IMG/VR virus record: IMGVR_UViG_3300020171_000018
Location: 1 to 64,000 of that record
DNA length: 64,000 nt
Direction: 5' to 3' (one strand)
From: a virus
A program made the position numbers and the translations under genes. The notes beneath the pieces were generated by a model that saw nothing but the letters and a program-made list of their open reading frames with translations, made no database searches and was not told the origin of the DNA. Positions 7,986-53,511 of the stretch are shown in pieces (the stretch's first letter is position 1; every line of letters begins with the position of its first letter).

Positions 7986-8040
7986 ATGCACAGCCTAGCT
8001 AATCTCCAAGCCGTACAATAGGATTCAGAAAGGGGGCCAC

Positions 8041-8205
8041 ATGGCCAAGAAGAGGGGTCAATCCAAGCGCAAGGGGGCAGGTCTGCTCCTGGCAGGGGCG
8101 GCAGTGCTGGGCCTCGTTGCTCTCGCAAGCCAGAAACCAACTCCCCCTCCACCGCCTCCGCCGCCACCTGGGGGAGGGCTGGACTTCAACATAACGATTG
8201 TCTGA
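8041..8205 (+). CDS. 54-aa membrane protein with poly-Pro tract (below the ORF-track cutoff)
   Basis: MAKKRGQSKRKGAGLLLAGAAVLGLVALASQKPTPPPPPPPPPGGGLDFNITIV*, preceded by AAGGGGG. Confidence 0.65.
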   Translation: MAKKRGQSKRKGAGLLLAGAAVLGLVALASQKPTPPPPPPPPPGGGLDFNITIV

Positions 8206-8255
8206 GGGTGAGAGGGTGAGGAAGCAGTGAGGCCGCACGCGGAGAAGGGGGCAGC

Positions 8256-31181: not shown

Positions 31182-32918
31182 CTACAGATTTGGGTCTACC
31201 GATAATGCTATGGTTGAAACCAGTCCCGTTGCAGGAATCGTTGAAGGAGTCGAAATGGGAACGTATCGGGTGCTTCCTACGGATGTCTTGCGCACCCGTA
31301 TTGTAACGGCCTTTGGGGTTGAGCCAGGATAGCTTCCAGAGGCTATCCCGTCTGGCGCCACACTCAGTGTATTCATGTACTCATCGTTGGTCGTTGCGTC
31401 GTAGACGCCTACCCGTGCGTCTATCACTGCCACTGCGCCTTGGTCAACGATGGTCAGGGTAATATCCACTGAAGAAGAGAAGGTCATTGTGCCCGCGCCA
31501 GCGTTCTCTGCGGTCAGCCCTGTTGTGCCCCCAACAATGGCAACAACAGTGTTGCTGGCCCCCTCATAGCGTACAGCCAGAGCGACCGTTCCAAACGTGA
31601 GGTTGGTGAACGTCAGGGTAGGCGAGGGGGTACTCTCCACCACGATGGAGTGAAAGGCAGGGTTCACAAACAGCGAACTCTGGCAGTTTGTGCTGTTGTC
31701 CCACTTCACTGCGCCGTCCAATGTCCCAACAATCGAGTTCAGTATGTTGCAGTTGCGGACTTTGGCTGCCCCTAGGTAGACACGTCCACAGGCATCGAAC
31801 GTGGTGCCGAATATCTCGTCGCTAACGTCGCAGTTAGTGAAGTCAATGGCGTTGGCTTCGTCCGCCCGCTCACAGTTCTTGAAGGTTGTAGCATAGAGGT
31901 CAAAGTCCTCCACCGCAGCGGTCCTGGTAAGACGCCACCCCTGCCGTGTAGACCCTGAGTTGATTTCGGGGTTCGCCGCCACGGAGAAACTCGGCCCGCT
32001 GCGTCCTCGGTCAGTACCCACAGCCACGCCAAACGTAACCACCGTATCACCCGATGGAGTCGTGGCATTGCCCACCACATCAAGTCCCCAGTAGCACAGC
32101 CCCGCTGCGTCCTCGTCGGGAACCGCCTTGACCCTGCTGGTGCCGTTGTAGTACATGGGAGTTTCCCAGACAAGGTTTTCTGCCTGACTGGAGAAGGTCA
32201 AGCCTGCAGCCGCAACGGCGTCGCCCAGCACAAACTTACACCTACAGAAGAAGGTGCCTGCCTTTTCAATAATCATGCCGTAGCGTCGGCTCTTGGTACC
32301 CCAGTCCCAGTCCGCTATCTCCTTGAAGCCCGCACCTGCAACCGCCACGGTGCCGGATACCCGTATCTCACCACGCCCATAGCATATCTGGTCTATGGCG
32401 AAGTTCTGACCTTTGGCGGTGCCAGTCGTTGTGATTGTCGCTCCAAAGTACTGAATGCTGGAAAGGGTCAGTCCAGCGCCACCGTAGGTGGAACGTGTCT
32501 GACTTGGGTCAATCACGTACATCACCCAACCATCACTATCAGGAATACCATAGTCAGAGCCACCCACGTAATACTCGTTATAATCAGTGGTAGTAGTACC
32601 AAGGCGAATGGAGAGGCCACCAAGCGCAAGAGTTTGGATTAGCTTTGGCGTGTTGCAGCGCAGCCACATGAAGATGAGCATCTTGTAGGCTGCTCCACCT
32701 GAGGCGAAGTTGAGTCCCGACCCCCTGTTGTACCACGCCCCCTTTGTGACTGCACCCGATACCGCTTTTGAGATACAACCAGCACCAGACCCAGCCGTCC
32801 GCTGCACCCAAGTGTCAGTTTCATCCACTATTGAAGTAGTGCCAATTTGAATCCACACTGACCCACCGGCATCGGCATCGTTCAGCACCGTTAGGTCTGT
32901 GCTTATTGCGAGTGTCAT
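31182..32918 (-). CDS. Virion structural protein, partly beta-helical
   Basis: 578 aa; C-terminus (VTIRVRK..YVP.ST..TI..TGL) paralogous to that of 28674..31166. Confidence 0.65.
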   Translation of the reverse strand: MTLAISTDLTVLNDADAGGSVWIQIGTTSIVDETDTWVQRTAGSGAGCISKAVSGAVTKGAWYNRGSGLNFASGGAAYKMLIFMWLRCNTPKLIQTLALGGLSIRLGTTTTDYNEYYVGGSDYGIPDSDGWVMYVIDPSQTRSTYGGAGLTLSSIQYFGATITTTGTAKGQNFAIDQICYGRGEIRVSGTVAVAGAGFKEIADWDWGTKSRRYGMIIEKAGTFFCRCKFVLGDAVAAAGLTFSSQAENLVWETPMYYNGTSRVKAVPDEDAAGLCYWGLDVVGNATTPSGDTVVTFGVAVGTDRGRSGPSFSVAANPEINSGSTRQGWRLTRTAAVEDFDLYATTFKNCERADEANAIDFTNCDVSDEIFGTTFDACGRVYLGAAKVRNCNILNSIVGTLDGAVKWDNSTNCQSSLFVNPAFHSIVVESTPSPTLTFTNLTFGTVALAVRYEGASNTVVAIVGGTTGLTAENAGAGTMTFSSSVDITLTIVDQGAVAVIDARVGVYDATTNDEYMNTLSVAPDGIASGSYPGSTPKAVTIRVRKTSVGSTRYVPISTPSTIPATGLVSTIALSVDPNL

Positions 32919-34573: not shown

Positions 34574-34874
34574 GGTGTATCTCCACCTCGGTTGGCAGCA
34601 GCGTCACGGGGTCCCACCGAATCTTCCAGACTTCCTTGTTGGTGTACGTGGCAGGGGCAGCAATAGGGGCAGCAACAGGAGCGCTAATGCTGTTGTTGGG
34701 GTTGCGAGAACGCAGCCATACCACTAACCCTATGGCAGCAACTAATCCCACGGCCAGCCACAGGCCAGTGTTGTCACGGTGCTCTTTACGGTTCTCTCCG
34801 CTCTCTCTGCGGGCCAGCCTTCTTGACTTAGTCGCCACGATTAGCCCCCTCCCACTCCTGTTACGGCCCCCCAA
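34554..34874 (-). CDS. Single-TM membrane protein
   Basis: GLWLAVGLVAAIGLVVWL TM; YTNKEVWKIRW tail. Confidence 0.55.
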   Translation of the reverse strand: MGGRNRSGRGLIVATKSRRLARRESGENRKEHRDNTGLWLAVGLVAAIGLVVWLRSRNPNNSISAPVAAPIAAPATYTNKEVWKIRWDPVTLLPTEVEIHRDAKRQ

Positions 34875-35442
34875 TGGTAGCTAGGGGAGCAACCGTCTCA
34901 GGAGTCAACTTCCCGCCTGGTACGGTAGTCTCCATCCCATACACCCGCCCTTGAATCCAAGTCCTAGCCATAGCGTGATCCAACTCCCCGTCGTTGTCCA
35001 AGTCGTAGTAGGCTATGTCGGCGGGGAGACCCGCTTGACGGGCAAGACTGGCAGCCAGGATCGCCGTATCATCACAGTCTCTCCATTTTGGCACCTGTCC
35101 CTGGGCCAGCATAGAAGCGAACTCATCAGGACTCGTGATGCTCTCCATGCCAACTGGGTCATCAGTGTACCCCACCGTGTCCGATATGTAGGTCTGGATG
35201 GCCTGGGCCGCCTGAGGGGTGCCGGGGTTGGCGCCTGCTTGGGACAGCACCGAGCGGGCAAGGTGGCTCACGGACTCGCTCTGCTCCCCACGGTGCAGGA
35301 ACTCCTGAGAGGCTTGCATGACCTGATTGGCGGAGTCGGGGCTGATTGGGAACTGGACTACCTCGCCAATGCTGCTGCCGATACCTGGCCGCCCCTTGAC
35401 CCCAGTAGACCCCAATCCTGACCCTTGGCTCAGTCTCAGCAC
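34861..35442 (-). CDS. Transglutaminase-like cysteine protease
   Basis: VGYTDDP.GME.ITSP...DCDDTAILAASL...DHAMAR...METT (Cys-His-acid triad). Confidence 0.8.
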   Translation of the reverse strand: MLRLSQGSGLGSTGVKGRPGIGSSIGEVVQFPISPDSANQVMQASQEFLHRGEQSESVSHLARSVLSQAGANPGTPQAAQAIQTYISDTVGYTDDPVGMESITSPDEFASMLAQGQVPKWRDCDDTAILAASLARQAGLPADIAYYDLDNDGELDHAMARTWIQGRVYGMETTVPGGKLTPETVAPLATIGGP

Positions 35443-36238: not shown

Positions 36239-38791
36239 TTACGCCCTTGTGGTCTTGTGGTAACTTGCGTCTCCCTTGAACCCCGTAGTGCCCGTCTTTC
36301 GGTACTCCCCAGACTTCTCGTTGTACCGATACCAGTGGTACAAGCCGCTTTTACGCACGCCAATGAGGCCACTGGGGTCACTATACCACCCCTTCGCCTT
36401 ATCTAGTTCCTTGACGCCTGTGGCACCTGGGTTGCGGAAGATGATGCTCCCGTTGACGTTGTAGAGCTGCGGGGCGGTCTTGAGCTCACCCCTGTTGGCG
36501 GCGTCCAGCTCTTGGAACGGGATAGAGTCGGGGTTCTTCTTCCCGCCCACCCCCTTTGCCCCTTTCACCCCTCGCACCCCCCTAGCCCCCCTGATGTACT
36601 CATGGAGCGCCCCAGGGTACGCCTCAGGAGCAGCCCTAGACTCAGTGGGCTTGGTCTCAACCGTCCCCTCGGTGTGGACAAGGCCCCCTGGGGTGGTTGT
36701 GGACTCCAGCACGGACTCAGGAGCGGGGGCATCGGGGAAGTCGGTGATGGAGCTGGCGTCCATCTCCCCAAAAGTGGGGTTGCGCTTGCCCTTGTGGTAG
36801 TGCGGCCCAATGTACCGCTTGCTGCCCTTAGTAAGTTGGTGCCCAATTGTGGCTACGAGGCCCTCTCCTTTTGCATCGTGGTAGTGCCTAGGGCCATGAT
36901 GGGTCACTTTCCCGCGCCGAGAAGCATGGGTGTGCCAGTAGCCCTCTGGGTTTTGGGGGTTCTGCAGGGGCGGCTCAATCACCCTCCCTTTATCCCCAAG
37001 AGCTGGCGTCACCAGCGTCGCCAGCTCCTTCTGAGAGGTGTACTCCTCAGGGCCGGGCTGGATTGACACCCCAGCCCCGCAGCCACTGCACCGCCCGACT
37101 CCTACTGACCCAGACTCGAATGGTTGACCACAGGACGGGCATTTTAGCTCTGAAACGATTGACATTGGATTCTCCTTCCTTCTACCATATGTTCCCCCAG
37201 AGTGCCCATACCCGCCACGCTGCTTGTGAGGGGATGGGGCATTGGGGGGTATAAACGAGATTATAGGGGACTCCAAGGCCATCTCAAGGTTCAGGTATGC
37301 CACTGTGCTACTCCAGCCAGAGTGGGCCTTGGCGAACTCCTTGGCCGCCCAGACCATTCGAGCGTGCCTGCTATCATCTTTACCCGCAAGGGCAGCTCTG
37401 GCAAGGTGATAGAGGTTCACAAGCTCAGCCTGTTCCCTTTTGTTGGCATATCTACTGGGATTCTTGCTCATATCAGCCTTCTCTCTAACAGGGCCTAGCC
37501 ACTCCTGACCCTTGCCCTTCTTCAACCCCAACTCTTTCAGGTACGCAAGGTCTCCTGCTGTGATGCTACCTTTGCCCTTGAAAGTCAACACATACTGCAC
37601 GGACGCCACGGGGCTTGGCCCAAACCACCCCGTAGGCCCAATGACTAGCTGCCCCTGAGCGTCCCACCTATTCGCTCTGAGCGTCCACCCAGGGGACATA
37701 CGAGACAGGTCTGGCATATTGGTGGGATTCATGGTGAACAGTGGCAGCATCGCACCCCTCCAGGCACTTGGAACCTTCGGCCTCTTCAGCTTCTCCCCGG
37801 TATCGCTCTTATAGTAGTGCTCCGCCATCCTGTCGTAGTACGTTTCCAGCTTCTTCAGCTTCTTCCCGTACTTCCGGCGTAGCTCTTCCTGCTCTTTGTA
37901 GACGGGGAACTGGGCATGACCCATCTCACTCCACTCCAACATGCGCTTCGTCTTGAGCTGGACCTCAACGGGCAGGCCGTTCGACTCAACAAGCAGGTGG
38001 TAGGAGCGGTACAGGCCCTTGGGCTGGGTTATGTAGTCCTCCTCTTCTATCACATTGAACTCGCCACGAATCTTTTTCAGTCCAGCGTACAGGGAGTCCA
38101 AGGTGGAGAATACGACGCGGACGCCCGCTATGTCGGTTAGTGAGGATAGCTCAGTACCCCGCCTAGTCAGCTTCTCCATGATGCTCTCCACGGTCTTTAG
38201 CCGGGATGAGACCTTGCCGGGGAACATGCGCTCCAACTCTGTAGAGACCTGAGATAGGGACTCCCGGTAGCGTGCCTGGTACGCCTCGATGCTTGTGTCA
38301 CTGAGGCCATTGGATCCCTCTGGGTTCCCCTTGGGCATCGTCTCAGAGGTGGTCAGCCACATTTTGTGACCCAATCCCAGCTTCTTAATCTCCTTCTGGG
38401 CGTCCCTTAGGCTACCAGCGAACACTAGCTTGCCATCGGAGACTCTGAATATCTTGTAGCTGGTGCTCTTGGGTATGGGGTTCCCGCTTCCTTCCTTGGT
38501 CTTCTCCAACAGTCCCAGAAACGCCTCGACCACTTCAGCCTCTGCCGCCATCTTGGTAGTGGCCCTTCTCGACCCCAGTTTCCTAGAGCCATCCCAGATA
38601 GCCCACTCCCAATCGTTGTGACCGAGCCTCTTCACCGCCGCCGAGTATTCCTGGAGGCCAAGGTAGGTCTCCCTGTCAGGGTGCAGGGCCTCCCATTCGT
38701 CATGCCCCACAGAGCGCCAGGCTACCTTGTCCCGCATCTCCTGGAGGGCGAGCCGGCGCCTCATCAGCTTGAACTGTGTAGTCAAGGGCAT
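36239..38791 (-). CDS. NP-punctuated multidomain protein with a RelA/SpoT small alarmone synthetase domain and a Zn ribbon
   Basis: SRLKTVESIMEKL, DIAGVRVV, DYITQPKGLYRSYHL, VEVQLKT, WSEMGH..YK at ~37725-38325; 10 NP dipeptides. Confidence 0.85.
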   Translation of the reverse strand: MPLTTQFKLMRRRLALQEMRDKVAWRSVGHDEWEALHPDRETYLGLQEYSAAVKRLGHNDWEWAIWDGSRKLGSRRATTKMAAEAEVVEAFLGLLEKTKEGSGNPIPKSTSYKIFRVSDGKLVFAGSLRDAQKEIKKLGLGHKMWLTTSETMPKGNPEGSNGLSDTSIEAYQARYRESLSQVSTELERMFPGKVSSRLKTVESIMEKLTRRGTELSSLTDIAGVRVVFSTLDSLYAGLKKIRGEFNVIEEEDYITQPKGLYRSYHLLVESNGLPVEVQLKTKRMLEWSEMGHAQFPVYKEQEELRRKYGKKLKKLETYYDRMAEHYYKSDTGEKLKRPKVPSAWRGAMLPLFTMNPTNMPDLSRMSPGWTLRANRWDAQGQLVIGPTGWFGPSPVASVQYVLTFKGKGSITAGDLAYLKELGLKKGKGQEWLGPVREKADMSKNPSRYANKREQAELVNLYHLARAALAGKDDSRHARMVWAAKEFAKAHSGWSSTVAYLNLEMALESPIISFIPPNAPSPHKQRGGYGHSGGTYGRRKENPMSIVSELKCPSCGQPFESGSVGVGRCSGCGAGVSIQPGPEEYTSQKELATLVTPALGDKGRVIEPPLQNPQNPEGYWHTHASRRGKVTHHGPRHYHDAKGEGLVATIGHQLTKGSKRYIGPHYHKGKRNPTFGEMDASSITDFPDAPAPESVLESTTTPGGLVHTEGTVETKPTESRAAPEAYPGALHEYIRGARGVRGVKGAKGVGGKKNPDSIPFQELDAANRGELKTAPQLYNVNGSIIFRNPGATGVKELDKAKGWYSDPSGLIGVRKSGLYHWYRYNEKSGEYRKTGTTGFKGDASYHKTTRA

Positions 38792-38793
38792 AC

Positions 38794-39204
38794 CTACCCC
38801 CCGCCCCCAAGAGTGCCCAGTAGTTCCATCACCTTTGCTCTCCCTCTCCCACCTTGATTCCTGTGCTCCCTCACAATCAACCAGTATAGCTGTCTCCCAA
38901 ACCTGTCCTTGGCTGGCCGGGAGTAGAACCCCTTGCTGGGTCTGTGCGGATACCCCAGACAGTGCGTTAACTCGTGAACCAGCCTCTTTCTGCGTTCATG
39001 CACCCTTTGCTTGGCCCACTCAGGAGTCACCACAATCAGCTTCTTGGCCGGGACCGCCCAGATGTCTGGGTACTTCCCCCTGTACGTTGGCTCCTCTTGC
39101 AAATACACCCGCTCCACCCCCATGATGGGGCACGCAACCTTCTCAAGCCAGTCCATGTCGGCCTGGTGAATCAGGACCGCTCCTCTGGCCAACTTGGCGG
39201 GCAT
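38794..39204 (-). CDS. HExxH zincin-like metallopeptidase
   Basis: RLVHELTHCLGYPH. Confidence 0.6.
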   Translation of the reverse strand: MPAKLARGAVLIHQADMDWLEKVACPIMGVERVYLQEEPTYRGKYPDIWAVPAKKLIVVTPEWAKQRVHERRKRLVHELTHCLGYPHRPSKGFYSRPAKDRFGRQLYWLIVREHRNQGGRGRAKVMELLGTLGGGG

Positions 39205-39417
39205 CTACACTCTCGCCCTCTTAGCCCGCCGTGCCTCATTTATCAAGATAATCCAAGAGTCATTCGGGAGCAGGCCAGGCCCCTCAGCAATCATTAGCTC
39301 TCCCCTTGAGTTGAAATGCAACTTGACGGGCACGAGAGGCATCAGGGTGCCGTGCCGCTTCTCCAAGGCGCGGAGCTCCTGTTTCGAGAAGGAGACCATA
39401 AACGAGGGGTTACGCAA
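39205..39417 (-). CDS. Small protein starting MRNP
   Basis: 70 aa. Confidence 0.45.
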   Translation of the reverse strand: MRNPSFMVSFSKQELRALEKRHGTLMPLVPVKLHFNSRGELMIAEGPGLLPNDSWIILINEARRAKRARV

Positions 39418-39427
39418 GATGCACCTC

Positions 39428-41608
39428 CTAGCTCACCATCAGAGTGGCACCACAGTCACACTGGTACACCCCGGGGTCAGGGTTCCCGATTGACCCCTGG
39501 CATGAGGGGCAGCTCAGAGATGGGTTCCTTCCGGGATTGCTCCTTCTGGGATTACCTGGGTTAGCCTCCACCGTCTTTGCCCCTGCTACCAGACTACTCA
39601 CCACCTCTTTACTCGGTGCCGCCACAAACAGCGGCATGATAACGATGTCCTGCATGACGCTCCCTGAGAACGTCCCGGGGCTGCTCTCGGTAGTCAGACC
39701 CACTGATATGGTCTCGGTCTCCTTGAACGTCCTGACAACGGTGTCACTGAGGTAGCTTGCGTCAAAGGCTATGTACCGTCTCTTGTCTTGCCCCGTCCAA
39801 TCTCCATTGAGAGACGCTGGCACCAGAGCGGCCTTGGGGTCAGAGTACGTGAATACCAGCAGCCTATCTCCGGCTATCCCCACTGTGCTCCAAGGCATGA
39901 ACCCCACCTGTTTGGACTCCTTGTACCTACCAGTAATCAGGCCCCCAGTTTCCGCAAGGGCCGCCACCAGTGCCCCAGCCCTCACATCGAAGCCCCACTC
40001 CTGCCCGGAAGGGATTAGTTGGGGGTAGTTGGGGAACTTGCCTAGTATCCCCTTGAACGATTGCTCCTTATCCCCAACGGCCACAACCAGACCGGGGACA
40101 TCGCTGACCTCGGTGCTGATAATGCTGCCTGCCCTGTTCTTGTTCACAAAGGTCTCATAGCTGGATACTGGAACGAAGTCAATCAGGGCCTTGCCACCCT
40201 TGAGTGCCTTTGCAGGTATGCCAGACGCCCACTTTGCCAGCTCCTTAGCGGGGATGTTGGCCGTCCAATCACCCCTCCCCGCAGTCTCTAGGGTCAGTGA
40301 TGCGTGGGCCAGCCGGAACCCGTCCGCCGCTGCCAGGTCTAGGAGCTCCCCCTGCTTCTGGATGTTGATGCAGGTAAGAGTGGGCCTTGCTCTGTCGGTA
40401 GCAGCGTACAGGGTTATGCGCTTGATTACGTCCACGAGCAGGTTGGCACTGATTGTTGAGGGGTCACCAGCGGGCTTGCCAATCCTAGACTTGGCTACCT
40501 CCTCAGCCTCCTGAGCAGCTTTGGCCTCAGCAGCCTCCTTCTGCTTCTTGCGCTCGGCGGCCTCCTTGACCTCTTGAATGGCCTGTTTCGCCAAGGGGTG
40601 GAGAGGCTTGACCTCATCCTCTGGGCCCCATCTACCGCCGCTGAACAGGTCGGAAGGCCCACCCAGCACGCCTACCGTGTCATCGCTTTGAGAGACGGGC
40701 CCTACCCCGACCTCCAGACTGTTTGCCTCCTCTAGGACCGGGCTGGGTGGGGGCAATTTTACCAGAACGAACTTCCCCTGCACATTTTGGAACTCCTCAC
40801 CGCCTTGGGCCCCCGCAAACATAATGGGGAGAGAGTGCTTTGCTAGACTCTCTTCATGTTCCAGCCAGCTCCTCCAGTGCGGGTCAGCCTGCAACTCCTC
40901 CTTTGCTACAGCCCTAATGTAAGCTACATGGTGGGCTCCGTCAGCCCCCAACCAAGAGGCCATCTCATACCACTGGCCCAGTTTGAGCCCATATTTGTCG
41001 GCCTGCTTTTGGCGTTCCCCCTTGACCCTAGCTAGGGCCTGCCGTGATGCCCACTGGTAGCCGAATAAGGACCGATTGAACTTGCTTGTCTTGACCGCCT
41101 CACCCAGCCCCACAATCCGGCTAATGGTCCGTCCCACCTTGTTGTTGCCTACAGGCTTGGGAGGGTGCATGGTGTCCATATTGGCCCACCGCACGGCCTC
41201 CCAAGCAGACGGCTCACTATGAACCCCTCGCTCTCTGGTAAGAATCTCTCGTAGCCTCTCGGTGCTAGGCTTGCCCCCGTACCTAGTGGACATTATCACG
41301 TACCCCTCAGGGCCCTTCACTAGGTAGTAGTCCAGCCGTGGGTCCCCATAGCGCCCAGTAGTGCCGGGTTTGGAGGCGTATAGGACGGGCGTCTCGGTTA
41401 TCAGCCCGTCCAAGGCAGCAATAGCCTGTTGCTGGGTGGCCTCAGCATCGGCAACAGCCTTGTCCAGCTTAGCAGCCTCACGGTCATACTCCCCTTGGTC
41501 TGGGGTAGAGGGGGGCATAGTGGTCTCCCCACGGTGGGAAGCCTCTACAGCCCAAGGTTCGCCAGCCTGTACATGCTCCTCAAAGGGCGGATTGCGGGAC
41601 ATGCTCAC
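39428..41608 (-). CDS. NP-punctuated multidomain protein with a partial beta-clamp (DnaN domains II-III) and C-terminal Zn ribbon
   Basis: AATDRARPTLTCI, LAAADGFRLA, IPAKEL, GKFPNYPQLIP, IAFDASYL, IVIMPL at ~39630-40460. Confidence 0.85.
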   Translation of the reverse strand: MSMSRNPPFEEHVQAGEPWAVEASHRGETTMPPSTPDQGEYDREAAKLDKAVADAEATQQQAIAALDGLITETPVLYASKPGTTGRYGDPRLDYYLVKGPEGYVIMSTRYGGKPSTERLREILTRERGVHSEPSAWEAVRWANMDTMHPPKPVGNNKVGRTISRIVGLGEAVKTSKFNRSLFGYQWASRQALARVKGERQKQADKYGLKLGQWYEMASWLGADGAHHVAYIRAVAKEELQADPHWRSWLEHEESLAKHSLPIMFAGAQGGEEFQNVQGKFVLVKLPPPSPVLEEANSLEVGVGPVSQSDDTVGVLGGPSDLFSGGRWGPEDEVKPLHPLAKQAIQEVKEAAERKKQKEAAEAKAAQEAEEVAKSRIGKPAGDPSTISANLLVDVIKRITLYAATDRARPTLTCINIQKQGELLDLAAADGFRLAHASLTLETAGRGDWTANIPAKELAKWASGIPAKALKGGKALIDFVPVSSYETFVNKNRAGSIISTEVSDVPGLVVAVGDKEQSFKGILGKFPNYPQLIPSGQEWGFDVRAGALVAALAETGGLITGRYKESKQVGFMPWSTVGIAGDRLLVFTYSDPKAALVPASLNGDWTGQDKRRYIAFDASYLSDTVVRTFKETETISVGLTTESSPGTFSGSVMQDIVIMPLFVAAPSKEVVSSLVAGAKTVEANPGNPRRSNPGRNPSLSCPSCQGSIGNPDPGVYQCDCGATLMVS

Positions 41609-41621
41609 TCTCCTAGGCAGC

Positions 41622-43013
41622 CTAACTCACTTGGAACTCAGCGCCACACCCGTCGCACCGATACGTGCCAGCGCCCAGGCTGCCCACCCCCTGGTTGCAG
41701 CCTGGGCAGGAAAGGGAGTCTGGGTTCCCTCTTGGTGTCCCTTCGTACTCTCGTATCAATCTGTCCTGAGTAGCGTTGTCGTACCCATGCCACACACCGG
41801 CGGTCACCTGAGCAATCCGCCTCTTGCCGAACTTGGGATACTCAGCCTTGATTCTGGGCAGCATCATGGCCCACCACTTGGCGGGGGGTCTGGTGGACTT
41901 CCCAGGCGCTGAGCGGGGATTCAGGGAAGGGGCACTCCCGCCTTCCCCCTCAACATACCTTTGGGCTACCTTGCGCGGCAGCGTCTCACGCTCTATCTTG
42001 GGTAGGCGCTCACTTACTAGCCGTTGTAGCTCATCCCGACCCTTCTCATTGGTAGGTCTGCCTACCCACATCTGCTCGACGCTGCCCTTGAATGGTAGCT
42101 CTATTTGGCGCACGTCTGTGAGCCCATATTGGTCTACGAGCCATTGGTCAGGCCCCTCTTTTGTACCAAGATAGCGCCAACCCCTAACCGCCAACTCGGC
42201 AATTAGCACATGGCGCTCACGGCCAGACCCAAACATCCACAGATTGCCCTCCAGCTTCTTGGTAACTGAGGTAATGCCCCGAAGGGAAGACGGCAGCGGC
42301 TTTCCACGAGGGTTAGTATGGTCAAGGCCAACCTGTTCAGGTCTTAGCCCTGCCTTGGCATAGGCAAAGCATGTCTTGTGGTAGGTGTGCAGCTTCCCCA
42401 CCTTCACACCTCCAGCATAGATGGGGCGCGTGCAGAAGAAGCAGGTAGCCTTGCCCCTCTCCTGCTTTCGGGAGCGCCAGGTCCGCTTGGAGACGGCTGA
42501 GCGTTCGGCGTGAGAGAGGGGGTTCATGCAGCACCCTGGGTTCTTTCCACCACAACACCCAGCCCTGACCCCTGGGTTAGCTACTGGTTGGTAGGCGTGC
42601 TGCTCCACCCACTCCATAGCCTTGGCTCTAGCCTTAAACCAGCGCACCTTTGCCTTGCTGGGGGCTATCCAAGCTTTCGCCCTCCACGGCTTACCCTCGT
42701 GACCCTGGGGGGCATCGGGGAAATAGGCCACACTCCCGTATTCCAGACCGGAGAGGTCACCCCAGAACATGATGCCCTTCTCCTGTCCGGCCCATTGGAG
42801 CTTACTGGGGTTGGACACGGGTTGCGTTACATGCTGCACTACCCCATCCCCGTCCCGCACAATTACGGGCCTCTCCACGGGCCCCTCTCCAACTCCCCTG
42901 ACAACCCCCTTGGTAATGGACTGAGCGCCGGACTGGGTAGTCTCAGGCCCAGGGTGCTCTACCCTGACTGTGGCTGTTGTTTCATTCAGACTGTTCGGAT
43001 TAGCCATGTCCAC
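41622..43013 (-). CDS. NP-punctuated multidomain basic protein with Zn-finger modules
   Basis: 8 NP dipeptides; CFFC..HKTC; terminal CPGC..CDGC ribbon. Confidence 0.7.
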   Translation of the reverse strand: MDMANPNSLNETTATVRVEHPGPETTQSGAQSITKGVVRGVGEGPVERPVIVRDGDGVVQHVTQPVSNPSKLQWAGQEKGIMFWGDLSGLEYGSVAYFPDAPQGHEGKPWRAKAWIAPSKAKVRWFKARAKAMEWVEQHAYQPVANPGVRAGCCGGKNPGCCMNPLSHAERSAVSKRTWRSRKQERGKATCFFCTRPIYAGGVKVGKLHTYHKTCFAYAKAGLRPEQVGLDHTNPRGKPLPSSLRGITSVTKKLEGNLWMFGSGRERHVLIAELAVRGWRYLGTKEGPDQWLVDQYGLTDVRQIELPFKGSVEQMWVGRPTNEKGRDELQRLVSERLPKIERETLPRKVAQRYVEGEGGSAPSLNPRSAPGKSTRPPAKWWAMMLPRIKAEYPKFGKRRIAQVTAGVWHGYDNATQDRLIREYEGTPRGNPDSLSCPGCNQGVGSLGAGTYRCDGCGAEFQVS

Positions 43014-43182
43014 GCTCCTTTAGTCCAACTGTTCTAAACACAATCACTCGGTCACACCTCTCACAGTACCGTACCGACCCAAGGCACCTGGCCCACTTCT
43101 TAGCCCTCTCAGCCCCCTTCACTTGGTACACCACTATCTCTCCCCAACGATGATTGCAGGCTGGCCCAGACCCCCCCTTCAC
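43000..43182 (-). CDS. Small Zn-binding protein
   Basis: CNHRW...CERC. Confidence 0.45.
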   Translation of the reverse strand: MKGGSGPACNHRWGEIVVYQVKGAERAKKWARCLGSVRYCERCDRVIVFRTVGLKERGHG

Positions 43183-43844
43183 CCAACCACGCCCCTAGAA
43201 GTCAACTGAGGGTATCGGTCGCCCCCCTTCACCTTGGCTATGAACAGCCCCTTGCCGTGCTCGTCTGTGAATACCCAATACTCGGTGCCGACCTTCCCAC
43301 TTCCCAAGTCGCCCACCTCATGCTCCCAAAGGCTGCCAGCCCGTTTGGAGGGCTTCCAAGATTCGTAAACAAAGGAGCGAAGCCTCCCAATTACGATGCC
43401 CCTCTTGGGGTAGTCCTCTATCTCCACCTCTACCAGCTCTTGGGGCTCGGTCTCGTGGAACTCCCGGTACTTCTTGACCAGCTCAGGGGGGAGATTGGAT
43501 ACATCCATTTGGGCCTGAGGGTTCTTCTGCACGTTGTCTCGTGGGTTCCCTTGTACCCCCCTTGGCAGTATCTCTAGCAGGTTGATTTCCGTTCGGTAGT
43601 ACCGTCTCTTGGGGGTTATGACCTCTACTTGACCCGTGAAGGGAATCCACACTCCCTCCCCAGTGCTAAGGCCATGCTCTCCCTTGTTGGTGACTGTGAA
43701 TATCCTCGATGGGGGCATAGTGACCACTGGGTACTGCCCCTCCAACAGGGCAAAGGAGACGTTCTTGACCCTATCCCCCACTCTGACTTTACTAGCTGGA
43801 ACCAACTTCCCACTCACTATGACACCCCTCAAAATACCAGCCAT
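43179..43844 (-). CDS. Two-module protein split by an NP linker
   Basis: GNPRDNVQKNP, then YREFH..P...IGRL..FVY......WEHE module. Confidence 0.6.
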   Translation of the reverse strand: MAGILRGVIVSGKLVPASKVRVGDRVKNVSFALLEGQYPVVTMPPSRIFTVTNKGEHGLSTGEGVWIPFTGQVEVITPKRRYYRTEINLLEILPRGVQGNPRDNVQKNPQAQMDVSNLPPELVKKYREFHETEPQELVEVEIEDYPKRGIVIGRLRSFVYESWKPSKRAGSLWEHEVGDLGSGKVGTEYWVFTDEHGKGLFIAKVKGGDRYPQLTSRGVVG

Positions 43845-43923
43845 CTTCCCAGTGAAATGCCATCCAAACGCCTCCTCATTGGGTTATAGCCCCCTTCTGG
43901 CGCTCCTGACGCTCCCAAGCCCT

Positions 43924-44472
43924 TTACGCCCACTTGGCATCGAACCCGCTCAGAGCCGCCCCTGACACCACTCTCAGCACTCCCACATCAGTGTCAATCA
44001 GCGTGAACCCTGAGTCATCCAAGAACGCCGCCGCGCCGTAGAGGGTTGTCAACGCACTATCCACCACCCAGATGTAGGCGTCGAAGGTGCGCCCGGCCCA
44101 GGCCGACTCTATGAGCAGCGCCACCGGGGTAGAGAGGGTCTGCTGCACTACGCCGACCGTACCCCTGCTTGGCGTGGTGAATGCGGACACGGTGTACTTC
44201 CCGTCGGCCAGGTTGGCGCCGTCGTTGAAGTCACCTGAGCCCTTCTTCAGCCCGATGAGCACCCAGAACAAGGTGGCCGGGCCCACCCAGTTGTACTGCA
44301 CGTCCGTGACTCTCAGGTACTCACCCGGATTCTTGTTCAACGGCAGGGAGCCGGGATTGAGCGCCCCGAGGCCCCGCCCGACCATCCCCACTCGAAACCC
44401 GCTCATCCTGCTCACGTGGTTGCTCATCCGGTGCTTGCTCACTGTTCCCTCGTTGCTCATCCTGATGGCCAT
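43924..44472 (-). CDS. Protein with basic leader, NP linker and beta-rich domain
   Basis: RMS repeats, then LNPGSLPLNKNP; AGGAGG RBS. Confidence 0.6.
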   Translation of the reverse strand: MAIRMSNEGTVSKHRMSNHVSRMSGFRVGMVGRGLGALNPGSLPLNKNPGEYLRVTDVQYNWVGPATLFWVLIGLKKGSGDFNDGANLADGKYTVSAFTTPSRGTVGVVQQTLSTPVALLIESAWAGRTFDAYIWVVDSALTTLYGAAAFLDDSGFTLIDTDVGVLRVVSGAALSGFDAKWA

Positions 44473-44512
44473 GTCAGCCTCCTGCCAGCTCTGTTAGCTC
44501 CACCCGACTTTG

Positions 44513-45223
44513 TTAGCTCCACTTCACTGCGATGTTTGATAGGACCCCTTCTGGTGGCGGCGGTGGCGGCGGGGGAGGAGGAGGGGTAGTGCCCTTGCCC
44601 CCCAGCATCAACAGCGCACCAACCCCTACTGCCGCTATACCCAACATCCCGCCCCCGCCCCCCTTTTCTGGGTTGCGTGGGTTGCGTGGGTTGCGCCGTA
44701 CACGGGGAACCACACCCTTCTTCGCCAGGGCCTGGTATGCGATGAACAGCCCCCCACCAATGAGAAGGAGCGGCCCCAGACCAGCGGCTATTCCTCCCCC
44801 GATGTCTTTCCATGAAGAGCGCGCCAGCTTGAACGTCAACGCCCCAAACAGGGCTAGTATTCCGATGGCAATAGCGATTACAATGATGGCTGGCCAGGCC
44901 CCTATGCCCCCGCTTCTGGACCCCACTCCGTTCTCCGTCACAACCCCGTTCCGGACCGTGCCGCTGGACTCCCTCTCAGGCGCCCCCTCCATGTCCACCG
45001 TCACCCGATACCCGTCGAATATCGGGGCCGTGTCCTGCTCAATGACGTAGTGGAGGAGCTTCCCCCGGAGTCCCGGAGTCCACCCGGTTCCGGCGTTTAT
45101 AGCGGCTGCAATGGTGCCAGAGAGCCCCGGAGTCCCAGAGAACGCCATCACCAACTGACTGGAGGGGCCGTGGTAGCTGTCACCCCGGGGCGTAGTCACC
45201 TCTCTTGATATAGCGTAGGCCAT
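44513..45223 (-). CDS. Membrane protein (three TM) with RRNPRNPRNP linker and poly-Pro tail
   Basis: 236 aa; GGGAGG RBS. Confidence 0.65.
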   Translation of the reverse strand: MAYAISREVTTPRGDSYHGPSSQLVMAFSGTPGLSGTIAAAINAGTGWTPGLRGKLLHYVIEQDTAPIFDGYRVTVDMEGAPERESSGTVRNGVVTENGVGSRSGGIGAWPAIIVIAIAIGILALFGALTFKLARSSWKDIGGGIAAGLGPLLLIGGGLFIAYQALAKKGVVPRVRRNPRNPRNPEKGGGGGMLGIAAVGVGALLMLGGKGTTPPPPPPPPPPPEGVLSNIAVKWS

Positions 45224-45503: not shown

Positions 45504-45533
45504 ATACTACCCCCTTTATCACGTTGTTGTCAA
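45504..45533 (-). promoter_or_regulatory. Possible sigma70 promoter for the leftward structural operon
   Basis: TTGACA-18 nt-TAGTAT. Confidence 0.5.
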
Positions 45534-45832
45534 GTGGCCCTCTTAGATGAAGCCAACAGCTCCTTGTTGGTCGGCCCCATACCATCCCCGGTTCGCCGAA
45601 GTGCGTCAAACAACGTTTCAAGCTCGTCCCTGCATCTGGTACACAAGTTGAAGCCTGTACGTGGAGGCTCCGTGCCGGGAGGGTTTGCGCAATGATGCTG
45701 GAACCTCGTATCTACCCAGGCGCGGTGCCTATCGCAGGTATCCTTCTTGCACATCGCACAGGCGGTACTGGCCTCGTCTGGGAGAGTTGGTTCACACAGG
45801 TCACAGATATAGATTACCTTGGTTGTCTTCAT
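45530..45832 (-). CDS. Cys-rich Zn-finger protein
   Basis: CDLC, CAMC, CDRH, CTRC; AGGAGG RBS; similar pattern in 59555..59848. Confidence 0.55.
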   Translation of the reverse strand: MKTTKVIYICDLCEPTLPDEASTACAMCKKDTCDRHRAWVDTRFQHHCANPPGTEPPRTGFNLCTRCRDELETLFDALRRTGDGMGPTNKELLASSKRAT

Positions 45833-45929
45833 CAGGAGAAACCTCCTTCGTTGCTCAATGATTCGCATACAGCAACCCCTCCTTACCACACTGCGCCATA
45901 AAGCCCCCGGATTTACCCGTGGGGAGTAG

Positions 45930-46553
45930 TCACCAAGCCCCAGGCAGCTTCCTAAAGGCATTCAACGCCCTGATTCGCATGTTGGGGCCATTGGTCACTG
46001 CTACTACAGCCACCCTCTCCATTTCTGGGGGCGTGATAAGCACCAACCAGTGGAGCACTATCAGCAACCCCTCAGGCCGAGTGACTCTAGCGGCCTCTCT
46101 TGCCATGATATTGGGTCTGGGGTACGGATACCCCCAGTAGGCGGCCCGACTCTCGTCATATGGCGGGTCGCATATCACTATTCCAAAGAGGCTGTCAGCA
46201 AAGGGCAGGTGGCAGGCATCCGCTAGAACAGTAGGTCTAACAGCCGGGTTCATGTCCACTGACATCCCCTCTTTGACTAGCCCAGAGCAGACGAACAGGA
46301 CAGGCTCCTCCCAGCCTATGCGCTCTTTGATGCGCTCAAGAAGCAGGCCAGGAAAGCGTTGGGCATACTTGCCCGTGGCCCTGGGGAGCGCCCACACCTC
46401 AGTCTTACCTATCTGGTGGTACTGTCCAGAGCCCCCAGCCCAGCGATTAGGAGTAGGAGTGGGTTGAGTCACAGCGACGGAAGGCCGCTCACTCACGTCG
46501 TACCAACTTCCATCTTGGGAACCACCCCTGACTTCGCATCTTGGCCAGGGCAA
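45930..46553 (-). CDS. Small N6/N4 DNA methyltransferase-like protein
   Basis: LFVCSG..SVDMNP..DACHLPFAD..VICDPPY; start probably downstream. Confidence 0.75.
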   Translation of the reverse strand: MPWPRCEVRGGSQDGSWYDVSERPSVAVTQPTPTPNRWAGGSGQYHQIGKTEVWALPRATGKYAQRFPGLLLERIKERIGWEEPVLFVCSGLVKEGMSVDMNPAVRPTVLADACHLPFADSLFGIVICDPPYDESRAAYWGYPYPRPNIMAREAARVTRPEGLLIVLHWLVLITPPEMERVAVVAVTNGPNMRIRALNAFRKLPGAW

Positions 46554-48202: not shown

Positions 48203-50839
48203 TTATCTCCAATCTAGCTTCTCCATTTCGCCCCACCTGTACCCCACCTTGGCATCGCACGGCGTCGGCACGTCCAACTTCACCGCCGACTCCATGATTG
48301 GCACAACCAGTCCCGCCAGCTCCTCCACCTCCCAGGCCGGGCACTCAAACACCAACTCGTCATGCACCTGTAGAATCATCCTGCCCTGCAACCTAGCCTT
48401 TTGGAGTGCCCAGTCAATCCGTATCATGGCTATCTTGAGGATGTCTGCGGCTGTCCCTTGGACCGGCATGTTGACGGCCATCCTGATGCCCTCAGCCCGC
48501 TCCTTCCTGATTGGCGAGTAGGCCTCAGGCACCCACCTCACCCGATTGAACATATCTTTGACCCACCCCCTCTCTAGTATCTCAGCCTCTTTGGTCTTCA
48601 TGTAGGCCCTGACACCTTGATACGTCTCAAACCAGGTGTTCAGGTGCCCCTGCCAGTCCTCCACGCCGATGTTCCTGTCCTGCTTGTAAAGGCCCATCGC
48701 CGAGATGCCATAAATGACGCCGAAGTTGACCCTCTTGGCGGCCTTCCTCTCATCGGGGGTTATCTGCTGGGCCAACTTCTCGTACATATAGGTTGCGGTC
48801 TCGGCGTGAAGGTCCCGCCCCTCCCTGAACGCACGCAGCATTACAGGGTCTTGGCTGAGATGGGCCATGCAGCGCATCTCTATCTGTGAGGCGTCCACCG
48901 ATAGCAGCACCCAGTCCCAGGATGGGGCCGTAAACACCCTACGCACCACCAACCCGTACCCCTCTACAGGTACATTCTGTACATTTGGAGCCTCGGATGA
49001 GAGGCGCCCAGTCGCCGTCCGGGTCTGCTTGTAGGTGGTTCGTATTCTGCCATCTGGATGCACAATCCTGGGGTACACGTCTATGTACGTCCCCTTGAGC
49101 TTCTCTATCTCCCTGTGCTCCATGATGGCATCCACAACCGGGTGCCGGCCCTTCAGCTCCTCCAGCACATCATCGTCCGTGGAGATGCCACCAGTCGGGG
49201 TTCGCTTGGTGGGCTTCAACCCTAATCTGTCGAACAGGAGCCACGCCACCTGCTGGGGAGAAGATACGTTGAAGGGTGTCCCTGCCTCCCACCACACCTG
49301 GCCCAGGGCGTCCTCCAACTTCTCAGCCATCTCCTTGGCTATCCGCTCGTTCTCAACCCTGTCCCAATACAACCCCTGAGCTGTCATGCGGTTCAGTATG
49401 GGCACTAGGGGCAACTCTATATCCCACAGCAGTGACCCCATATCCCAATGCTTGATTTGGCGTTCGAGCACCGGCCTGAGCTGGTGAGTTGCGATTGCGT
49501 CCATCGCTGAGTAGCGAACCCACTTGGCCTCAGTGGGCACATCAGCGATGGTCGGGTGAGGCACCGTTAGCCCCGTGGCCCGCTCTATGGCCTCCCTCTC
49601 CACCGCCTCAAGGTTCCCTACCAGTTTGAATCCGTCCGCCCCCTGCCCCACCTTCTTGGCCATAGATCCCAGCTTCCTCTCTAGGGGCTGGTGCTTGTGC
49701 GTCTTTAGCAGGATGTCGGTCTTGCCTTTGTTCCACTCCCACCTGTCCTCTGGGGGCATGGGGCCGTACTTGTGCTTGGCGGCCTCCAAGAGGTAGCGTT
49801 TGACCTTCTCGGCCCCATACTGGCCCACTAGGTCATCGTAGCGGGCCATCTTCAAGCCAAGGTCACGGTAGGCCAACTCTTTCAGGGCCTGACTCTCCTT
49901 CCCCAAAAGGTAGGCCGCAATCATGGAGTCAAACACGGTCTTGTCAACCTTGATACTGACCGACTCAAGGACTCTTACATCGTAAAGTGCGTTGTGCATC
50001 ACCACCACCAGCCCGGGCCTGTTCAGGGCCTCAGTTAGCCTCTTGGCCCCGTCTGCCCCCAGGTCATCCCGATGCACCACGTACCCAGTCCGACCATCCG
50101 TGCTAAATGACATGCAGAACAGGCCCCGCTCGTCTGATTCTGTGTCCACCGCCACACTAGGGGACTGGCTGATGGCCTCCACCACTGTGTCCACACTTAC
50201 TCTGATGGTCACGAGGTCTGGTCTGGAGTTGTCCCTGCTGAACCTCAGGCCATCCGCCAGAAACGCCCCTAGTGCCTTGAAGTCATCCATCACCAGCTTC
50301 CTGAACCGGGCCTGCCTGAGTCCCGCCGCCGGGTGATAGCATGGGAACACGACCGTCCTATGCCCCGCCACCATGACCTCCTTGGGCAGTCCATGAGTCT
50401 GGCTGACTGTGAGAGTGGGATCATTTAGCACCCAGCGAATCGCAGCGGCACCTACGGGGATGATGAGCTTGGGGCGCATGGCGCGAATCTCATCAACTAG
50501 CCAAAGAGTGGTGCAGATGGAGACCGCTTCTTCTGGGGGGGTGCCACTCCCCGTGGCGCTTGACAGGCAATTTATAGTATTAGTGAGCAGCACCCCTGTT
50601 CTGCCCAGCCCCGCTATCTCCAACAACTCATTCAGGTATCTCCCGGCGTTTCCAATGAATGGTATGCCCCCCGATTCAGGGTCCGCCTCTTCCTTGCCGG
50701 GCTGCTCCCCAATCAGCATGACCTCTAGCTCATCGTCGGCCCACCAAGGGGGAACAGGGATACCGTGCTTGCCAGCCAGGGAGCAGGAGGCGCAGGAGCG
50801 CACGCCGTCAGCTATCTGGGAGAGTTGGGTGGAGTTCAC
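48203..50839 (-). CDS. polA: Family A DNA polymerase with N-terminal uracil-DNA glycosylase (family 4-like) and 3'-5' exonuclease domains
   Basis: UDG: CASCSL, GEQPG, PFIGNAG, YHPAA; Exo: VDTES, HNALYD, YSAMDA; Pol: TGRLSS, DASQIEMR, RKAAKRVNFGVIYG, QVHDE. Confidence 0.95.
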   Translation of the reverse strand: MNSTQLSQIADGVRSCASCSLAGKHGIPVPPWWADDELEVMLIGEQPGKEEADPESGGIPFIGNAGRYLNELLEIAGLGRTGVLLTNTINCLSSATGSGTPPEEAVSICTTLWLVDEIRAMRPKLIIPVGAAAIRWVLNDPTLTVSQTHGLPKEVMVAGHRTVVFPCYHPAAGLRQARFRKLVMDDFKALGAFLADGLRFSRDNSRPDLVTIRVSVDTVVEAISQSPSVAVDTESDERGLFCMSFSTDGRTGYVVHRDDLGADGAKRLTEALNRPGLVVVMHNALYDVRVLESVSIKVDKTVFDSMIAAYLLGKESQALKELAYRDLGLKMARYDDLVGQYGAEKVKRYLLEAAKHKYGPMPPEDRWEWNKGKTDILLKTHKHQPLERKLGSMAKKVGQGADGFKLVGNLEAVEREAIERATGLTVPHPTIADVPTEAKWVRYSAMDAIATHQLRPVLERQIKHWDMGSLLWDIELPLVPILNRMTAQGLYWDRVENERIAKEMAEKLEDALGQVWWEAGTPFNVSSPQQVAWLLFDRLGLKPTKRTPTGGISTDDDVLEELKGRHPVVDAIMEHREIEKLKGTYIDVYPRIVHPDGRIRTTYKQTRTATGRLSSEAPNVQNVPVEGYGLVVRRVFTAPSWDWVLLSVDASQIEMRCMAHLSQDPVMLRAFREGRDLHAETATYMYEKLAQQITPDERKAAKRVNFGVIYGISAMGLYKQDRNIGVEDWQGHLNTWFETYQGVRAYMKTKEAEILERGWVKDMFNRVRWVPEAYSPIRKERAEGIRMAVNMPVQGTAADILKIAMIRIDWALQKARLQGRMILQVHDELVFECPAWEVEELAGLVVPIMESAVKLDVPTPCDAKVGYRWGEMEKLDWR

Positions 50840-52875: not shown

Positions 52876-53511
52876 CTACTGTCCTATCACCAAGAGAGCA
52901 GGATCAAGCACGGCCCCCTGCTCCTTATTGGCCTTTTCGCCCTCATTGCCAATCTGCGTCTTCAGGTTGTGCCAAATACGGAGTTCCTCGCCATGTACCC
53001 AGCACGTAGCCAACATGCTGACAGCAGCGCCGTACATGAATCCAGTAATGCCCTCAAGGTCGGCTTCGTGAGACACCTCTTTAGCAATATCCACCAACTT
53101 GGTGCCTGTGGCCATGCGGGCTTCCATAAGGTTGGCCCAGCGTGCTGCATACCTCACACAAGCAGCACCATATGGATCCTTGTTGAACTTAACCCAGGTA
53201 TTCCACTTGGTAACGTTGGTGACAGTGAACGGCTTGATGCCCTCAGCGGCGGCAGCTTCGGCACGGCGTTGCGCTTCTGCGCGCTCGGCAAGCACTCGCT
53301 GGCCCTCAGGTGAGGCTTCCCACCTCTGATGGCGGCGGTTCACCTCCGCGAAGTATTCGTTGACCATGAGCAGGGGGTCACTATCGGGGTTGGCTGTAAT
53401 CGACACGTCGTTGAATGTGGTCGTTACTACCCTGCGGCTCTCAGATGCCCGCTTTGCCATGCGCCGTGTGACCTGTTCTATGGTTTCACCAACCATCGGC
53501 TCGTCCTTCAT
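52876..53511 (-). CDS. Conserved-looking phage hypothetical protein
   Basis: YAARWANLME..GITGFMYGAAV..L..CWVHGEELR. Confidence 0.6.
   Translation of the reverse strand: MKDEPMVGETIEQVTRRMAKRASESRRVVTTTFNDVSITANPDSDPLLMVNEYFAEVNRRHQRWEASPEGQRVLAERAEAQRRAEAAAAEGIKPFTVTNVTKWNTWVKFNKDPYGAACVRYAARWANLMEARMATGTKLVDIAKEVSHEADLEGITGFMYGAAVSMLATCWVHGEELRIWHNLKTQIGNEGEKANKEQGAVLDPALLVIGQ

Follow-up and report, generated by a model that had tools for sequence, protein, structure and literature searches.

What function, if any, is served by the many asparagine-proline (Asn-Pro, NP) dipeptides in the proteins of one viral gene block? The window analysed here is the first 64 kb (64,000 nucleotides) of the IMG/VR virus record IMGVR_UViG_3300020171_000018, which is 85,802 bp long with direct terminal repeats. 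The stretch occurs in groundwater metagenomes from two studies and the virus is uncultured. The block consists of seven co-directional genes on the minus strand (positions 36239 to 45223), coding for 2814 amino acids in total. A preliminary description of this DNA had proposed that the block codes for polyproteins cut at NP into small effectors, possibly packaged in the virion and delivered on infection. Our analysis argues strongly (probability about 0.9) for a functional role of NP as a sequence-specific seam that separates swappable modules. As judged from sequence comparison, this seam is lineage-specific and lies in polyvalent-like multi-module proteins. Cutting of the chain at the seams is plausible on the same grounds, at somewhat less than even odds.

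Excess of Asn-Pro in the gene block

The expected number of NP was calculated from amino acid composition, and residue shuffling inside each protein (20,000 shuffles) served as the null. A total of 31 NP were found in the 2814 amino acids of the seven proteins against an expectation of 5.3, an excess of about sixfold. The numbers per protein, in order from the 850-amino-acid protein (36239..38791), are 10, 0, 6, 8, 2, 2 and 3. The shuffles gave a mean of 5.28 NP (standard deviation 2.18) and a maximum of 15. The preliminary description had counted 32 NP in about 2750 amino acids; its enrichment stands and its count needs correction, as the 136-amino-acid protein (38794..39204) contains no NP rather than one. 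Counts based on 33 sites include the seven block genes and the neighbouring open reading frame (ORF) of 143 amino acids at 45530-45961. For this set 33 NP were found against 5.6 expected (Poisson p 2.6e-15). The dipeptide statistics that the preliminary description had called for were run on the same set, and NP was by far the most deviant of the 400 dipeptides and the only strong outlier.

The rest of the 85.8-kb genome contains 54 NP against 37.7 expected, and asparagine is followed by proline in 39% of cases in the block versus 9% elsewhere in the genome. As the preliminary description stated, NP is absent from PolA (48203-50839) and the helicase (57724-59397); this absence is not significant alone, because only 1.6 NP are expected there.

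Analysis of the codons indicated selection at the protein level, since the underlying nucleotide pattern is locked to the reading frame and the Asn and Pro codons follow background usage. Within the block genes frame 0 holds 33 AAYCC, and the other two frames hold two and six. The AAC:AAT ratio is 22:11 at the seams versus 59:25 in the whole block, and all four proline codons are used. A DNA-level motif is ruled out by this frame distribution together with the degenerate codons. Other dipeptides ending in proline are not enriched (DP 0.80x, SP 0.54x, TP 1.15x and GP 0.79x). Aspartic acid, serine or threonine would be tolerated in a generic turn of the Asx-Pro or Ser/Thr-Pro type but not by an S1 pocket or by amide chemistry; the Asn-only enrichment thus weakens the turn explanation. 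Lysine or arginine is preferred two- to threefold at positions -1 and -2 of the seams, and the flanks otherwise hold no conserved residues.

An origin without any protein-level function, whether by chance, as a DNA motif, as relics of gene-start spacers or as internal ribosome-binding sites, is hardly credible. The shuffles never exceeded 15 NP and AAYCC is frame-locked. Shine-Dalgarno-like pairing upstream of NP is not above background (-3.5 vs -4.4 kcal/mol, p 0.94), which rejects internal ribosome-binding sites in general. AAYCC falls in the spacer at three of 105 ORF starts, all of them dubious short ORFs, which rejects start-codon spacer relics; enrichment of NP at ORF N-termini genome-wide is likewise not significant (4/105 ORFs). 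The one exception, and the single point in favour of such an origin, is seam N541 of the 850-amino-acid protein (37166-37183, minus strand). Here the in-frame AAGGAG AATCCA ATG reads as a perfect, canonical Shine-Dalgarno sequence, spacer and start. Its sequence would fit the scar of a gene fusion, or else an internal start from which the zinc ribbon and the downstream modules are expressed separately.

Conservation of the seams and stand-alone relatives of the modules

The 850-amino-acid protein carries 10 of the seams. Its features are as follows (alignment A1 comprises this protein and its homologues; AF2 is AlphaFold2 and pLDDT is the predicted local distance difference test score).

36239..38791, minus strand: 850-amino-acid multi-module protein with seams N104, N156, N355, N444, N541, N611, N614, N671, N753 and N787
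37886..38206, minus strand: RelA/SpoT synthetase domain, residues 196-302 (Pfam PF04607, E 1.4e-22), inside segment 157-354
37457..37462, minus strand: seam N444-P445 before the small helical module, invariant in alignment A1
37262..37456, minus strand: small helical module, residues 446-510, core ELVNLYHLARxAL, with stand-alone relatives and no Pfam family
37166..37171, minus strand: seam N541-P542 before the internal zinc ribbon, invariant in the homologue alignment
37061..37165, minus strand: zinc ribbon 1, residues 543-577, conserved in P0002 and P0003
36242..36430, minus strand: C-terminal beta module, residues 788-850, after seam N787-P788, with stand-alone homologues and an AF2 pLDDT island at 803-836

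Homologues were found at 97% (P0001), 54% (P0002) and 43% identity (P0003, local BLASTP; 31% over the whole alignment). The pairs N355-P356, N444-P445 and N541-P542 are invariant among them, and the surrounding linker residues vary. N671 is also invariant, with its proline lost in P0003, which reads NR. P0003 keeps the NP-bounded segment 356-443 and replaces the next one; P0002 does the reverse. The homologues are rich in NP too, with 11 where 2.1 are expected and 6 where 1.3 are. In homologues the dipeptide is conserved and placed at module borders, so that the refuting condition set on this point in the preliminary description does not hold.

Two further differences between relatives were observed. 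P0001 follows the 850-amino-acid protein up to about residue 735, then diverges and stops at 765; this frameshift-like change lies in a Gly/Arg-rich linker before N753 and may reflect either faulty assembly or a natural separation of the last two modules. In the source sample, a contig of a diverged strain (depth 5 vs 22, about 89% identity) has an in-frame gap of 96 nucleotides at 36779-36874, which takes out approximately residues 640-671, part of a His-rich segment, and stops at the N671 codon.

Comparison with stand-alone proteins revealed that the seams coincide with gene borders. An exhaustive phmmer search with residues 310-850 as query yielded 130 representative proteins. More than 100 of these are stand-alone proteins of 60-95 amino acids that cover only about 446-506, the small helical module, and four cover only the last 60 residues. 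For 73 stand-alone helical proteins the projected N-terminus has a median of 441 (interquartile range 433-446), beside seam N444. P0011, P0083 and P0117 project to N-termini at 787, 787 and 785, beside seam N787. P0033, a stand-alone RelA/SpoT protein of 232 amino acids, projects onto 155-386, beside seam N156. Seams and stand-alone N-termini thus agree within about three residues for the RelA/SpoT, helical and C-terminal beta modules. The helical family itself (ELVNLYHLARTALxG...RMxWA; proteins P0006-P0132) forms more than 100 clusters at 50% identity, mostly metagenomic and without a Pfam model; the ESM Atlas gave only weak TPR-like leads at low recognition.

In 15 of the 18 matches that are multi-module proteins (about 190 amino acids or more) NP lies close to the ends of the helical module, typically at -5 to -10 and +2 to +9; among 74 stand-alone copies NP occurs at all in only 8. 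NP is a property of the joint rather than of the module. When 39 proteins were split at NP and the pieces clustered, reuse of modules emerged: the C-terminal module of the 221-amino-acid protein (43182-43520) recurs in five other viral proteins (P0026, P0034, P0110, P0113 and P0131), where it directly follows the helical module and is joined to it by an NP seam, and the JAB segment of P0003 recurs in P0038.

The RelA/SpoT assignment scores 80.5 bits against a cut-off of 27, and the motifs RLKxxxSxxxK, DIAGVRV, YRSYH and EVQLKT are readable. The domain is flanked by N156 and N355, in agreement with the earlier placement between two NPs. The preliminary description had also suggested comparing NP with AlphaFold domain boundaries. 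In the AF2 model of the 850-amino-acid protein, which is poor (mean pLDDT 33.8, four sequences) and informative for coarse secondary structure only, none of the 10 NP lies in a predicted helix or strand, which hold 37% of residues. The better islands (361-434, 474-503 and 803-836) each fall within a single seam-bounded segment. The agreement with boundaries holds to this extent, and the model lends weak support to the view that the seams would lie in linkers.

The excess of NP is restricted to certain lineages. Six IMG/VR loci with a stand-alone or NP-free helical-module gene contain 64 NP against 56 expected. An unrelated metagenomic virus with a guanine-cytosine content of 48% (L008) has 24 NP against 8.8 expected, with KKNP-type seams in multi-module proteins of 389 and 294 amino acids and in the basic arms of membrane proteins. 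Pfam searches of ten neighbouring genes of L008 found lysis enzymes and no peptidase. Fusions of the helical module entirely without NP occur in P0015, P0021, P0051 and L004. Because some lineages fuse the same module in this way, NP is not needed for a working fusion, and the lineage restriction of the excess suggests a dedicated, trans-acting reader.

The other proteins of the block and its surroundings are as follows.

38794..39204, minus strand: 136-amino-acid protein without NP, with HELTHCLGYPH (HExxHxxGxxH), a candidate minimal zinc metallopeptidase
39428..41608, minus strand: 726-amino-acid protein with six NP, composed of an N-domain of no known family, a two-domain beta-clamp, an NP cluster and a zinc ribbon
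39521..39562, minus strand: NP cluster ANPGNPRRSNPGRNP, residues 682-696, separating the clamp from zinc ribbon 2
39431..39520, minus strand: zinc ribbon 2, residues 697-726, with an internal NP at 709 (by sequence pattern)
41622..43013, minus strand: 463-amino-acid protein with eight NP and NP-bounded segments of 63, 78, 12, 6, 70, 131, 65 and 33 amino acids
41625-41720, minus strand: zinc ribbon 3 at the end of the 463-amino-acid protein (by sequence pattern)
43179..43844, minus strand: 221-amino-acid two-module protein, its modules joined by NP100 and NP108
43924..44472, minus strand: 182-amino-acid protein with NP39 and NP48 close to the N-terminus
44513..45223, minus strand: 236-amino-acid membrane-like protein with three NP and RRNPRNPRNP in a basic loop between hydrophobic segments
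45530..45961, minus strand: 143-amino-acid Cys-rich protein with NP17 and NP93, just past the range of the preliminary description
34861..35442, minus strand: 193-amino-acid transglutaminase-core (papain-like) protein (PF01841, E 2e-6, above cut-off), downstream of the block

The clusters ANPGNPRRSNPGRNP, RRNPRNPRNP and QNPQNP are present as first reported. The clamp of the 726-amino-acid protein (residues 385-659; PF02767, E 1.3e-9) ends about 24 residues ahead of the first of these, which bears out the claim that the clamp ends at the NP cluster. Its match to phrog_947 spans profile positions 129-362 only, and clamp domain I was not detected. The clamp-protein homologue P0005 (65% identity) retains NP691, 695 and 709. 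All three zinc ribbons, described earlier as paralogous and placed after NP, are similar in sequence (CPxC...C(D)GCG) and begin one to two residues after an NP at the positions first given. The second knuckle of zinc ribbon 2 (39431-39460, minus strand) reads C-D-C, and C-x-G-C is found in P0005 and the two paralogues; judging by this one-codon change, metal binding may be impaired. Shine-Dalgarno spacing favours downstream ATGs for the 726-amino-acid (41602-41608, minus strand) and 463-amino-acid proteins (43007-43013, minus strand). With these starts the former begins MSRNPP (NP at 4-5), its likely true start being the ATG at 41602, and the latter MANPNS (NP at 3-4). Beyond the window, a membrane-like protein of 173 amino acids (78347-78868 of the full record, G000, plus strand; L009:14347-14868) carries five NP. 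An RRHRRHYRR arm is framed by three of these, and the protein is reminiscent of the NP-rich basic arms of two L008 membrane proteins (612-1325 and 8020-8757).

Transcriptionally upstream of the block lie PolA with a fused uracil-DNA glycosylase domain, a dCTP-deaminase-like gene and methyltransferases; the genes downstream have no known function. In PolA (48203-50839, minus strand) the N-terminal domain of the uracil-DNA-glycosylase superfamily is fused to 3'-5' exonuclease and polymerase domains. Also in the replication region, a protein of 211 amino acids (52876-53511, minus strand) matches Pfam Tad4, a type I Thoeris inhibitor (E 9.6e-32), and is likely an anti-defence gene. The proteins at 5085-7985 and 31182-32918 look repeat-rich and beta-helix-like by eye. 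PHROGs matched few of the large ORFs of the genome. The closest protein relatives lie on small contigs binned to one Chloroflexota metagenome-assembled genome, so the host assignment is weak. IMG/VR queried with the clamp protein, PolA, P0032 and the 355-445 module gave no close relatives, and GenBank phages gave neither a DNA match nor a match to the small helical module. A metagenome scan with only the zinc-ribbon patterns from alignment A1 and a scan of genome contigs with P0005 gave no match.

Proposed reading of the seams and rival explanations

We propose that small modules, which are separate genes in other viruses, would be strung into multi-module proteins in this lineage, each joint carrying one or more NP, often preceded by a basic residue. 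A sequence-specific process would then read the seam, most likely by scission of the chain at or beside Asn-Pro, and so release the modules. Such scission could proceed by either of two routes. A virus-encoded endopeptidase, either the 136-amino-acid HExxHxxGxxH protein or the transglutaminase-like protein at 34861-35442, could cut the chain; alternatively, the side-chain amide of asparagine could attack its own peptide bond, as in RsgI, reovirus mu1/VP5 and YscU/FlhB.

Both candidate genes had been named in the preliminary description. The prediction holds in that 38794-39204 carries HExxHxxGxxH and 34861-35442 matches Transglut_core, and it falls short in that the 136-amino-acid protein has no Pfam profile match and no PDB sequence match. 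The latter protein is nevertheless the leading candidate endopeptidase for the seams, and the transglutaminase-like protein is the second candidate peptidase. The stop codon of the 136-amino-acid gene lies directly upstream, 2 nucleotides from the start of the 850-amino-acid gene, and residues H77, E78, H81, G84 and H87 are invariant in its sole homologue (87% identity). The nearest structures to its ESM Atlas model are SprT, YgjP, M48 and DUF6782 zincins (template modelling score 0.5-0.6), a lead only. A separate AF2 model was unusable (pLDDT 42), and a predicted complex of the protein with Zn and seam peptide 425-465 scored 0.02. In P0003 a region with HELTHERMQH, which matches DUF6782 weakly and below threshold (E 7e-4), lies N-terminal to the seamed modules, and a RadC/JAB domain is fused to them at the C-terminal end. 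The HELTH motifs of the 136-amino-acid protein and the P0003 N-terminus align by BLASTP, but at E 0.22.

Several observations weigh against a seam at which modules are released. No pair of split and fused forms was found within one lineage. NP lies within about residues 3-6 of the two proteins beginning MSRNPP and MANPNS, where it has no obvious polyprotein role, and in basic loops of membrane proteins; tandem NP clusters would release peptides of one to four residues. The junction of the N-domain and clamp in the 726-amino-acid protein lacks NP, so that the earlier claim of NP at domain borders applies to most module borders and not to all. NP is not depleted in the remaining proteome (54 vs 37.7), and a protease cutting every NP would need a context of disorder. 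In the poor AF2 model the seams lie in coil at low pLDDT, and they lack conserved flanks beyond the basic preference, which would set them apart from the folded contexts of known Asn|Pro self-cleavers. The zincin call of the 136-amino-acid protein draws on its motif and the structure-neighbour lead, and a search of the 85.8-kb genome for PF18818 (MPTase-PolyVal) at E<=1 gave no hit.

Many of these observations suit an uncut hinge or insulator equally well. Here NP would form a rigid Asx-Pro turn that interrupts secondary structure and cannot deamidate, a durable spacer that lets adjacent modules fold on their own, and the full-length chains would act as multi-domain proteins. NP placed close to N-termini, within loops of membrane proteins or as tandem clusters is explained as well by a hinge as by cutting. 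The position of all 10 NP of the 850-amino-acid protein outside helices and strands, with the confident islands within segments (in the low-confidence model noted above), also favours it. Nonetheless we regard the hinge as rather unlikely. Before proline, aspartic acid, serine and threonine would form turns or caps equally well, and none of them is enriched; NP stays invariant while other linker residues drift; P0015, P0021, P0051 and L004 fuse the module without NP; and the lineage restriction points to a trans-acting reader.

Such a reader need not cut. NP might be the core of a [K/R]-x-N-P short linear motif, present as a separate copy in each module, the first module and the membrane-protein loops included, and bound by a viral or host partner such as a chaperone, an assembly or sorting factor or a DNA-bound machine. 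A docking tag would account for NP at N-termini and in loops, for tandem copies through avidity, for the basic context and for the lineage restriction, and the shared C-terminal zinc ribbon behind NP on three proteins resembles a common handle. It is improbable, as a two-residue core is weak for specific binding and NP occurs in only 8 of 74 stand-alone copies, though these come mostly from lineages without NP use. We consider it a long shot that the proteins with seams are packaged as cargo of the virion, injected, and then cut into effectors during entry, the possibility raised in the preliminary description. Phage-type polyvalent proteins, an analogous case with RelA/SpoT among their domains (PMC5512222), and the five-NP membrane protein in a presumed structural region (78347-78868) speak for it. 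Nevertheless the packaging and delivery part of that description found no support. The genome was searched for PF04586, PF03237, PF05065 and PF05707 (S78 prohead protease, Terminase_6N, HK97-type capsid and Zot ATPase) without a match; MuF and portal matches were likewise not found and structural genes were not recognised. The block, which codes for a sliding clamp, has nucleotide-metabolism and replication genes on one side and unknown genes on the other.

The sequence-specific seam between modules remains the preferred reading, and its significance depends in part on whether the chain is cut. The NP rule marks fusion points of independent small proteins and is also seen in uncultured viruses that are not related to this one. 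Cut seams would allow giant viral ORFs to be divided by computation into the units that actually function, would provide a new protease specificity or self-cleaving linker for use as a tool, and would explain the shuffling of accessory modules. Even uncut, the seams would be an easy and dependable guide to domain boundaries in the annotation of viral dark matter. Processing of polyproteins at a fixed motif is standard in eukaryotic RNA viruses; to our knowledge no general use of it by bacterial or archaeal viruses has been described. A wider proposal can be offered tentatively: many uncultured prokaryotic viruses may use a two-residue Asn|Pro cut code, in which small accessory proteins are chained and then released by a new class of Asn/Pro-specific minimal zincin or by Asn-amide self-scission within flexible linkers, the seam serving also as a breakpoint for module exchange between viruses.

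Comparison with known systems

For fixed-motif cleavage in phages, the virion-maturation proteases offer a comparison. T4 gp21 cuts after L/I-x-E and phiKZ-type enzymes after S/A/G-x-E, and the prohead protease acts within the capsid. Like these systems, the seams form a short motif that recurs between functional units in several proteins of a single virus; unlike them, this genome has no prohead protease match. Proline at P1' is unusual for endopeptidases. PPEP-1 of Clostridioides difficile, a secreted M34 zincin that acts on surface adhesins, recognises VNP|PVP and cuts between the prolines. It offers a parallel as an HExxH zincin with Asn-Pro in the recognition site; HExxH plus a third ligand are present by sequence in the 136-amino-acid protein, the candidate zincin here. 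However, only 2 of the 33 seams read NPP, and this protein has no sequence relation to PPEP-1. The Asn-Pro turn of NANP-type repeats breaks regular secondary structure, can repeat in linkers and also accepts aspartic acid. The seams may share the local break of secondary structure and can be repeated in linkers, but they are Asn-only, and a turn leaves the lineage restriction and the coincidence with gene borders unexplained.

Asn-Pro autoproteolysis has been established experimentally in three unrelated folds: RsgI (PMC10328401), reovirus mu1 and aquareovirus VP5 at N42|P43 (PMC9148132), and the NPTH proteins FlhB, YscU and EscU (PMC3189125). The conserved Asn-Pro pair is the common element; in those proteins the asparagine is strictly required and the pair is the scissile bond. 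They differ in having one site per protein within a folded, Asn-positioning domain, in contrast to up to 10 sites in predicted coil here. Membership of the FlhB/YscU family, the precedent invoked in the preliminary description, is rejected, as NPTH is not found at any of the 33 sites (NPTF and NPTN come closest) and the block proteins gave no Pfam match to the FlhB C-terminal export-gate domain and show no FlhB fold. Skipping of the 2A/StopGo type (D(V/I)ExNPG|P) is also rejected; eight sites read NPG, none NPGP, and the upstream context is variable.

Literature searches turned up polyvalent proteins and Asn|Pro autoproteolysis, and no account of an NP seam for prokaryotic viral proteins. Polyvalent proteins of phages and conjugative elements combine two to fifteen unrelated domains by mosaic evolution (Iyer et al. 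2017; PMC5512222). Their chains were proposed to be processed by an embedded zincin, and RelA/SpoT is among the phage-type domains (PMC5512222). That paper describes no junction motif, and the words 'linker' and 'zinc ribbon' are absent from its text (PMC5512222). The proteins studied here differ in that the PF18818 MPTase is absent and only an unclassified HExxHxxGxxH gene lies adjacent, that no MuF or portal linkage was found, and that the modules are mostly tiny (33-130 amino acids) and of mostly unknown families. The resemblance lies in the architecture: the 850-amino-acid protein joins RelA/SpoT homologue (RSH), helical, zinc-ribbon and beta modules, each of which is stand-alone or differently fused elsewhere, and a relative of this protein carries RadC/JAB. 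As far as the literature searches show, the NP junction motif of these polyvalent-type viral proteins is previously undescribed.

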